The translations under genes and the position numbers were made by a program. Shown here one piece after another: positions 63,665-64,000 of a stretch of 64,000 nucleotides of DNA. Below the pieces are notes generated by a model. The model worked only from the letters and a program-made list of their open reading frames with translations, was not told where the DNA came from and did no database searches. The DNA is from Escherichia coli (lineage in GTDB: Bacteria; Pseudomonadota; Gammaproteobacteria; Enterobacterales; Enterobacteriaceae). Location of the stretch: assembly GCF_003334405.1 (NCBI RefSeq), contig NZ_QOWM01000010.1. One strand, 5' to 3'. Each line of letters starts with the position of its first letter. Position 1 is the first letter of the stretch.

Positions 63665-64000
63665 CTGCCTACGGGCGAAATGTAGGCCGGACAAGACGTT
63701 TATCGCATCCGGCAGTCGTGTGCAGATGCCTGATGCGACGCTAACGCGTCTTATCAGGCCTACAAATTCCCGCGCCATCCGTAGGCCGGATAAGGCGTTT
63801 ACGCCGCATCCGGCAGTCGTGCGCAGATGCCTGATGCGACGCTAACGCGTCTTATCAGGCCTACAAATTCTCGCGCCACCCGTAGGCCGGATAAGGCGTT
63901 CACGCCGCATCCGGCAGTCGTGCGCAGATGCCTGATGCGACGCTAACGCGTCTTATCAGGCCTACAAATTCCCGCGCCATCCGTAGGCCGGATAAGGCGT
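63665..64000. repeat. BIME tandem array (101-bp period, at least 3 copies), truncated by window end
   Basis: gtaggccggataaggcgtt(t/c)acgccgcatccggcagtcgtg(c/t)gcagatgcctgatgcgacgctaacgcgtcttatcaggcctacaaattc... recurring at 63781, 63882 and 63983, with a degenerate copy at about 63681. Confidence 0.85.

Follow-up and report, generated by a model that had tools for sequence, protein, structure and literature searches.

The tandem repeat between mhpE and mhpT, at the right-hand end of the window (the whole 64,000-nucleotide stretch of Escherichia coli DNA analysed here), is a bacterial interspersed mosaic element of type 2 (BIME-2) and is catalogued in EcoCyc as REP31. It is built of 101-bp units, each containing a Y and a Z2 REP palindrome, and its size varies among E. 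coli strains in whole units, from a lone REP to the four-unit allele of K-12. An explanation that joins this identity to putative roles in the transcript and as a gyrase substrate, and to copy-number change by entire units, is the best overall account of the feature and very probably the correct one.

Structure and extent of the array

The window is K-12 MG1655 sequence, 100% identical over 1,201 bp to many K-12 records, and corresponds to the reverse complement of NC_000913.3, at roughly 375,047-439,046. At 63682-64000, Tandem Repeats Finder reported a period of 101 with 3.2 copies, 95% matches, no indels and a score of 575, and an exact-seed repeat finder placed 95-nt copies at 63704, 63805 and 63906, which are 97-100% identical and spaced by exactly 101 bp. 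The two methods agree, bearing out the strict 101-bp BIME periodicity proposed in the initial annotation of this DNA, and the two REPs per unit that it described are present in every unit as alternating Y and Z2 palindromes. Its "degenerate copy" corresponds to unit 1 (Table 1). The start that it gave, 63665, must be moved to 63682, since 63665-63681 holds only a REP-tail-like GCCTAC remnant.

Along the window plus strand, a unit opens with a 35-nt Y REP (GTAGGCCGGATAAGGCGTTCACGCCGCATCCGGCA), followed by a 12-nt head-to-head S linker (GTCGTGCGCAGA; consensus across the array GTCGTG(C/T)GCAGA), a 37-nt inverted Z2 REP (TGCCTGATGCGACGCTAACGCGTCTTATCAGGCCTAC) and a 17-nt tail-to-tail (T-T) linker (AAATTCCCGCGCCATCC). 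The T-T linker, with the consensus AAATTC(C/T)C(G/A)CGCCA(T/C)CC, is conserved within the locus and near-identical to the linker of REP325, a related array located elsewhere in the chromosome between yjdM and yjdN. REP motifs GCCGGATGCGGCG and GCCTGATGCGACGC lie on opposite strands. Unit 1 measures only 99 bp because its Y REP has decayed through a 2-nt deletion and substitutions. Across the window there are 17 occurrences of the REP core motif, where shuffled sequences would lead one to expect 0.28, and this excess, together with the exact periodicity, rules out a chance origin.

Folding calculations gave -12.2 kcal/mol for the Y palindrome (z -4.4 against shuffles) and -11.6 kcal/mol for Z2 (z -5.6), the degenerate Y of unit 1 folding weakly (-6.1 kcal/mol). 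A Y-Z2 pair can also fold as one long hairpin of -27.4 kcal/mol, and the whole intergenic RNA, read in operon sense, reaches -294.7 kcal/mol (z -14 against shuffles).

The array occupies the 577-bp spacer that separates mhpE from mhpT in the 3-hydroxyphenylpropionate catabolic cluster. In the sense in which mhp is transcribed (window minus strand), mhpT is the gene 3' of the array, its start codon reading as CAT at 63586-63588 on the displayed strand. The placement of the array upstream of mhpT thus stands, 93 nt of unique sequence separating it from the start codon; this left flank of the array is common to 15 alleles from 15 strains. The array also continues past the window end, as had been suspected, extending a further 125 bp in K-12. 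There the full array (window-equivalent 63682-64125) comprises 4.4 copies and nine REP palindromes, five of them Y REPs, and the sequence beyond 64000 consists of the remainder of unit 4, a terminal Y REP, about 40 nt of unique DNA and the mhpE stop codon. In the K-12 locus numbered L002, Tandem Repeats Finder placed the 4.4 copies at 2883-3326, and the mhpE coding sequence lies at 3367-4380.

A REP-tail-like GCCTAC hexamer is located at 63667-63672, 9 nt ahead of the first Y REP, and is kept in strains with a lone REP. It and the GTAGGC of the Y REP make up a small inverted repeat in tail-to-tail arrangement, and the hexamer may be what remains of an earlier Z2 REP.

Table 1. Positions, in window numbering, of REP31 and its parts, of the adjoining mhpT region and of the two sister arrays.
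Feature	Coordinates	Strand	Basis
mhpT CDS (3-hydroxyphenylpropionate transporter, 403 aa)	62377..63588	-	RefSeq annotation, identical K-12 sequence
Unique spacer, array to mhpT start, 93 nt	63589..63681	-	Sequence
Unit 1, 99 bp	63682..63780		Tandem Repeats Finder, repeat geometry; Rfam naRNA4 62.8 bits, + strand
Unit 1, degenerate Y REP	63682..63714		
Unit 1, S linker GTCGTGTGCAGA	63715..63726		
Unit 1, Z2 REP	63727..63763		
Unit 1, T-T linker AAATTCCCGCGCCATCC	63764..63780		
Unit 2, 101 bp	63781..63881		Rfam naRNA4 87.2 bits, + strand; 62 bits, - strand
Unit 2, Y REP	63781..63815		
Unit 2, S linker	63816..63827		
Unit 2, Z2 REP	63828..63864		
Unit 2, T-T linker	63865..63881		
Unit 3, 101 bp	63882..63982		Rfam naRNA4 85 bits, + strand; 62.7 bits, - strand
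Unit 3, Y REP	63882..63916		
Unit 3, S linker	63917..63928		
Unit 3, Z2 REP	63929..63965		
Unit 3, T-T linker	63966..63982		
Unit 4, first 18 nt, cut by window end	63983..64000		K-12 comparison
Sister BIME-2 array, 2.1 units, period 100, frmB/fghA-yaiL	61518..61726		Tandem Repeats Finder
Sister Y/Z2 array, 1.9 units, period 102, downstream of ppnP	30369..30568		Tandem Repeats Finder

By the published definition (Ton-Hoang et al. 2012, PMC3333891), a BIME-2 combines a Y with an inverted Z2 REP across a short S linker, bears a tail-to-tail motif on its flank and occurs in tandem. In the present array, inverted Y and Z2 REPs alternate throughout, the head-to-head linker is of the short S type (12 nt) instead of the long L type, and the extragenic tandem is multi-copy and variable in number (4.4 copies in K-12, 0-4 among 115 genomes). 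Furthermore, REP31 is listed as a tandem element at MG1655 375366-374931, with mhpE and mhpT as its genes (Table S16, bioRxiv 10.64898/2026.03.23.713779); these coordinates (374,931-375,366) convert to window 63681-64116 and coincide with the array. The repeats had also been described as binding gyrase and IHF. The gyrase half of that description holds as a property of the BIME-2 class (PMC6379681), whereas the IHF half has to be dropped: IHF binding is a trait of the L linker of BIME-1 (PMC3333891), and the IHF consensus WATCAANNNNTTR had no match within the array. BIME-1, or an IHF-binding RIB, is ruled out by the Z2 REPs, the 12-nt linker, the tandem units and this absent consensus.

The idea that the repeats are not REPs, forming instead a CRISPR-like array or a protein-coding gene, has practically no chance of being right. 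A coding interpretation could draw on a 111-aa ORF (63443..63778, minus strand) that crosses unit 1 and on a "hypothetical protein" that PGAP annotates across the array in some genomes, but the PGAP call carries the flags of an incomplete, frameshifted pseudogene, and the ORF is lost in alleles with fewer units, its 3' part overlapping the mhpT coding region out of frame. A CRISPR array was rejected, there being no unique spacers and the entire 101-bp period being repeated at 95-99% identity. In E. coli Ec73552 (L023, 668-961), a "hypothetical protein" pseudogene called by PGAP runs through the REP array. Both this kind of pseudogene and the 111-aa ORF of the window are almost certainly artefacts of annotation that arise from translating REPs.

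Two further arrays in the window, previously placed at 30376-30574 and 61518-61730, proved to be real, with boundaries revised to those of Table 1. Both have only the Y-S-Z2 core in common with REP31; the frmB/fghA-yaiL array has a different T-T linker and the array downstream of ppnP has different linkers. The latter (MG1655 408,479-408,678) overlaps the 5' end of the annotated ykiA pseudogene (408,609-408,950), so that part of this "pseudogene" is REP sequence. Matches to the REP core motif additionally marked isolated REPs or REP pairs at window 4498-4530, 10579-10658 and 32556-32569.

Copy number among strains and rearrangement

The variability of the locus was assessed by using the two unique flanks, joined, to search 5,426 complete E. 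coli genomes, the insert being taken as the distance between the flanks. The locus was found in 4,924 genomes, and insert sizes were obtained from two rank-spread samples of these, which were mutually consistent and together comprised 115 distinct genomes. Full units numbered 0, 1, 2, 3 and 4 in 60, 14, 10, 3 and 28 of the 115, respectively. The commonest insert, 41-46 bp, represents a lone Y REP (60 genomes, 52%), and the remainder fell into discrete classes of 141-143 bp (n=14), 242-244 bp (n=10), 343-345 bp (n=3) and 442-444 bp (n=28). None of the 115 sampled genomes carried more than four units, the K-12 allele being the largest in the sample. The initial annotation had proposed comparing genomes for copy number that varies with strain, and in this 115-genome sample the number is indeed not invariant, ranging from 0 to 4 full units.

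Where the flanks were at most 98.1% identical to K-12, 33 of 34 genomes carried the lone REP, including O157:H7 and O25:H4 strains; multi-unit alleles occurred mostly in K-12-like flank haplotypes, with few exceptions. The lone REP of the divergent-flank genomes suggests a lineage-restricted expansion and not a conserved requirement. In the 15 alleles whose sequences were compared, differences always consisted of whole, in-register units. Strains LR-64-2 and C122, for instance, retain units 1 and 4 of K-12 plus the terminal Y, an arrangement that occurs with 100% identical flanks, and strain G8, with 100% identical flanks, has a hybrid first unit in which the crossover can be pinpointed inside the unit. 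The whole-unit differences and the G8 hybrid point to unequal homologous exchange or slippage between direct repeats. At 95-99% identity between repeats, either process, the slippage occurring during replication, would shift the unit number, possibly with help from a REP-associated tyrosine transposase. In vitro, BIME are cleaved and recombined by TnpA-REP, and BIME-2 in general vary in copy number among strains (PMC3333891).

In 502 of the 5,426 complete genomes, the mhpT and mhpE flanks were unmatched, the mhp locus being absent or replaced, and a few further genomes had one flank only or a rearranged locus (strains A30 and KS-NP019 being named with this observation). Among species-representative genomes, the T-T linker pattern CCTACAAATTCNCNCNCCNNCCGTAGG was found only three times, each time singly, in Escherichia sp. 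E1V33 and outside any tandem array. By this measure, the exact T-T linker is seldom present beyond E. coli.

The suggestion that arrays of this kind can mark recombination hotspots is supported experimentally for REP31 itself, this REP cluster near lac having been found in about 20% of sequenced lac-amplification junctions (Lin et al. 2011, PMC3161906). Insertion was observed as well. In E. coli MEI2A-0323 (NZ_CM149575.1; L011, 3482-4942), an IS621 copy, that is, a REP-targeting element of the IS110 family with a bridge-RNA recombinase, lies within a Z2 REP of REP31 at window-equivalent ~63762. Its junction, ...CTTATCAGGCCT^AC, fits the published natural target ATCAGGCCTAC with its CT core (PMC11208160), an 11-mer that occurs seven times in the window, three of them within REP31. 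A second IS621 of the same strain (L011, 307-1287) is located in the frmB-yaiL spacer, in the region of the 61518-61726 array.

Possible roles in mhp transcripts and in chromosome structure

When the mhp genes are transcribed, the array would enter the RNA as a row of stable hairpins. If REP325 is a guide, these would protect the upstream mhpABCDFE message by halting 3'-to-5' decay and would attenuate read-through into mhpT. Deletion of REP325 at its native locus increased the expression of yjdN, downstream, about 8-10-fold and reduced that of yjdM, upstream, about 3-fold, the attenuation being partly Rho-dependent and requiring the full-length array (2026 preprint). Such effects depend on context, and mRNA half-life is not uniformly lengthened by REPs (REP325 study). 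A promoter scan found no sigma-70 consensus site in the mhpE-mhpT spacer, including 63589-63681, which makes read-through a plausible source of mhpT transcription. No Rho-independent terminator (hairpin plus U tract) was detected inside the array, the single match of the scan falling within the mhpT coding sequence, and a search of the accessible literature gave no report on mhpT transcription. Unit number could, on the REP325 analogy, tune read-through into mhpT. More than half of the sampled genomes carry a single REP, so the multi-unit state is dispensable. Weighing these points, we put a locus-specific regulatory role for REP31 at about an even chance.

The orientation of REP31 bears on this analogy, since relative to operon transcription it is inverted with respect to REP325. 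The REP31 counterpart of the strand transcribed in REP325 is antisense to the mhp operon. As a result, the C-rich 17-nt linkers (8 C, 2 G), which could load Rho, fall on antisense transcripts and RNA in operon sense has the G-rich complement, so that attenuation may be weaker than, or different from, that at REP325. A more elaborate proposal, which we consider improbable, is that unit number (0-4) serves as a heritable, quickly mutable dial of mhpT against mhpABCDFE, with the array insulating mhp from antisense transcription and hairpins alone providing attenuation in the sense direction. An in vitro screen, whose published sites are tabulated in the 2026 preprint, placed a NusG-dependent Rho-binding site at MG1655 375,401-375,492, minus strand (window ~63555-63646, + strand). 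It is antisense to the 5' end of mhpT, 35 bp from REP31 and on the same strand as the C-rich linkers; it is compatible with a dial or insulator, and no proof of one.

As DNA, REP31 would be, like other BIME-2, a preferred gyrase cleavage site and a topological barrier. BIME-2 are significantly enriched in gyrase cleavage sites, mainly at Y REPs, and these sites increase under transcription block (PMC6379681); 70-77% of BIME-2 are situated between regions of supercoiling (PMC10592627). It is possible, although doubtful, that this is the primary role, the array acting as a strong, transcription-independent gyrase site and topologically insulating the mhp catabolic genes from mhpT or the genes downstream. 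The preference of gyrase for Y REPs, of which the K-12 array has five, and the placement of BIME-2 at supercoiling borders would suit such a role; on the other side, a subset of BIME-2 is cleaved, the multi-site loci singled out being sucC-sucB and tldD-yhdP (PMC6379681), the accessible part of that paper's supplements has no mention of mhp, and the first Y REP of REP31 is degenerate. A serious rival, which we place somewhat below an even chance, holds that the array is mainly selfish or neutral, REP doublets having been seeded and amplified by RAYT/TnpA-REP and by unequal crossing-over, with effects on transcript and topology as by-products. The absence of any fixed value in the range of 0-4 units agrees with this, as do the prevalence of the lone Y REP in the sample and its near-fixation among divergent-flank genomes, the in vitro activity of TnpA-REP, the generality of copy-number variation in BIME-2 (PMC3333891) and the near absence of the exact T-T linker outside E. 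coli in species-representative genomes. Against it stand the measurable effect of the related REP325 on both neighbouring genes, the frequency of the four-unit allele (28 of 115) and the good conservation of its sequence among K-12-like strains. This neutral account is not exclusive of the overall explanation preferred here, with which it is compatible.

It is very unlikely that the units are genes for nucleoid-associated small RNAs of the naRNA4 type, which would bind HU and help to condense the chromosome. Qian et al. (2015, PMC4550694) proposed this role for REP325 RNAs, with homologous sequences as possible substitutes, and four REP31 units pass the gathering threshold of 59.5 bits of the Rfam model RF02564 (naRNA4), whose source is REP325, on the + strand (87.2, 85, 79.3 and 62.8 bits), two of them passing on the - strand also (62-62.7 bits). 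However, RF02564 scored above threshold on each Y-S-Z2 pair of all three window arrays (63784-63962, 61579-61656 and 30431-30510); the model therefore behaves as a general BIME-2 detector, and a match to it should not be taken to indicate a particular small RNA gene. The best-scoring REP31 strand is moreover antisense to mhp, whereas REP325 is read in sense from the yjdM promoter. In the 2026 preprint, co-authored by Sankar Adhya, who was senior author on the earlier HU-RNA work, deletion or overexpression of REP325 left nucleoid volume unchanged, REP-REP contacts were absent in Hi-C, and the earlier claim of nucleoid compaction by HU and naRNA4 was not reproduced.

Comparison with REP325 and other known systems

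REP31 is already known: it is a named element, and the BIME-2 family, its variability and its hotspot behaviour have all been published. The family has been under study since the 1980s-90s, and the examination of REP31 is mainly confirmatory. What it adds is a defined natural allele series of 0-4 units that changes by exactly 101 bp at a time, also where the flanks of the strains are identical. This series, together with the orientation contrast with REP325, could provide a natural test bed for the recent proposal of "REPs as tunable 3'UTR dials".

REP325 itself is closely similar. Aligned over their full length, the two units are identical at 91 of 102 positions (89%), the T-T linker is shared at 15 of 17 positions (AAATTCCCGC(G/A)CC(A/C)TCC), and both arrays lie between two co-oriented genes, yjdM-yjdN and mhpE-mhpT, respectively. 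They differ, besides orientation, in size (5.8 units of 100 bp in REP325 against 4.4 units of 101 bp in REP31), in the S linker (ACGGTGCCGAC against GTCGTGCGCAGA) and in Rfam score, which is 95-111 bits on the yjdM-sense strand of REP325 and 63-87 bits on the window + strand of REP31.

Other REP-based systems share parts of this architecture. BIME-1, RIB and RIP resemble REP31 in having an intergenic Y REP with an inverted second REP, but BIME-1 has Z1, a long L linker with an IHF site and single copies, in contrast to the Z2, 12-nt linker and tandem arrangement of REP31. As in REPIN/RAYT systems, the Y-Z2 pair of REP31 folds as a hairpin and carries the GTAG foot and the stem mismatch, both needed for TnpA-REP binding (PMC3333891); no RAYT gene is present within the window, and REP31 is a tandem array at a fixed locus, whereas a REPIN is a dispersed doublet. 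Set against the BIME-2 family (Gilson, Bachellier, Hofnung; PMC3333891), REP31 has the same inverted Y/Z2 REPs, S linker, tail-to-tail linker and tandem arrangement, and it is likewise extragenic, with GTAG/CTAC feet and a strain-variable copy number. No essential difference separates it from that family, its own particulars being a degenerate first Y REP and a period of 101 bp, against 100 and 102 bp in the neighbouring arrays.
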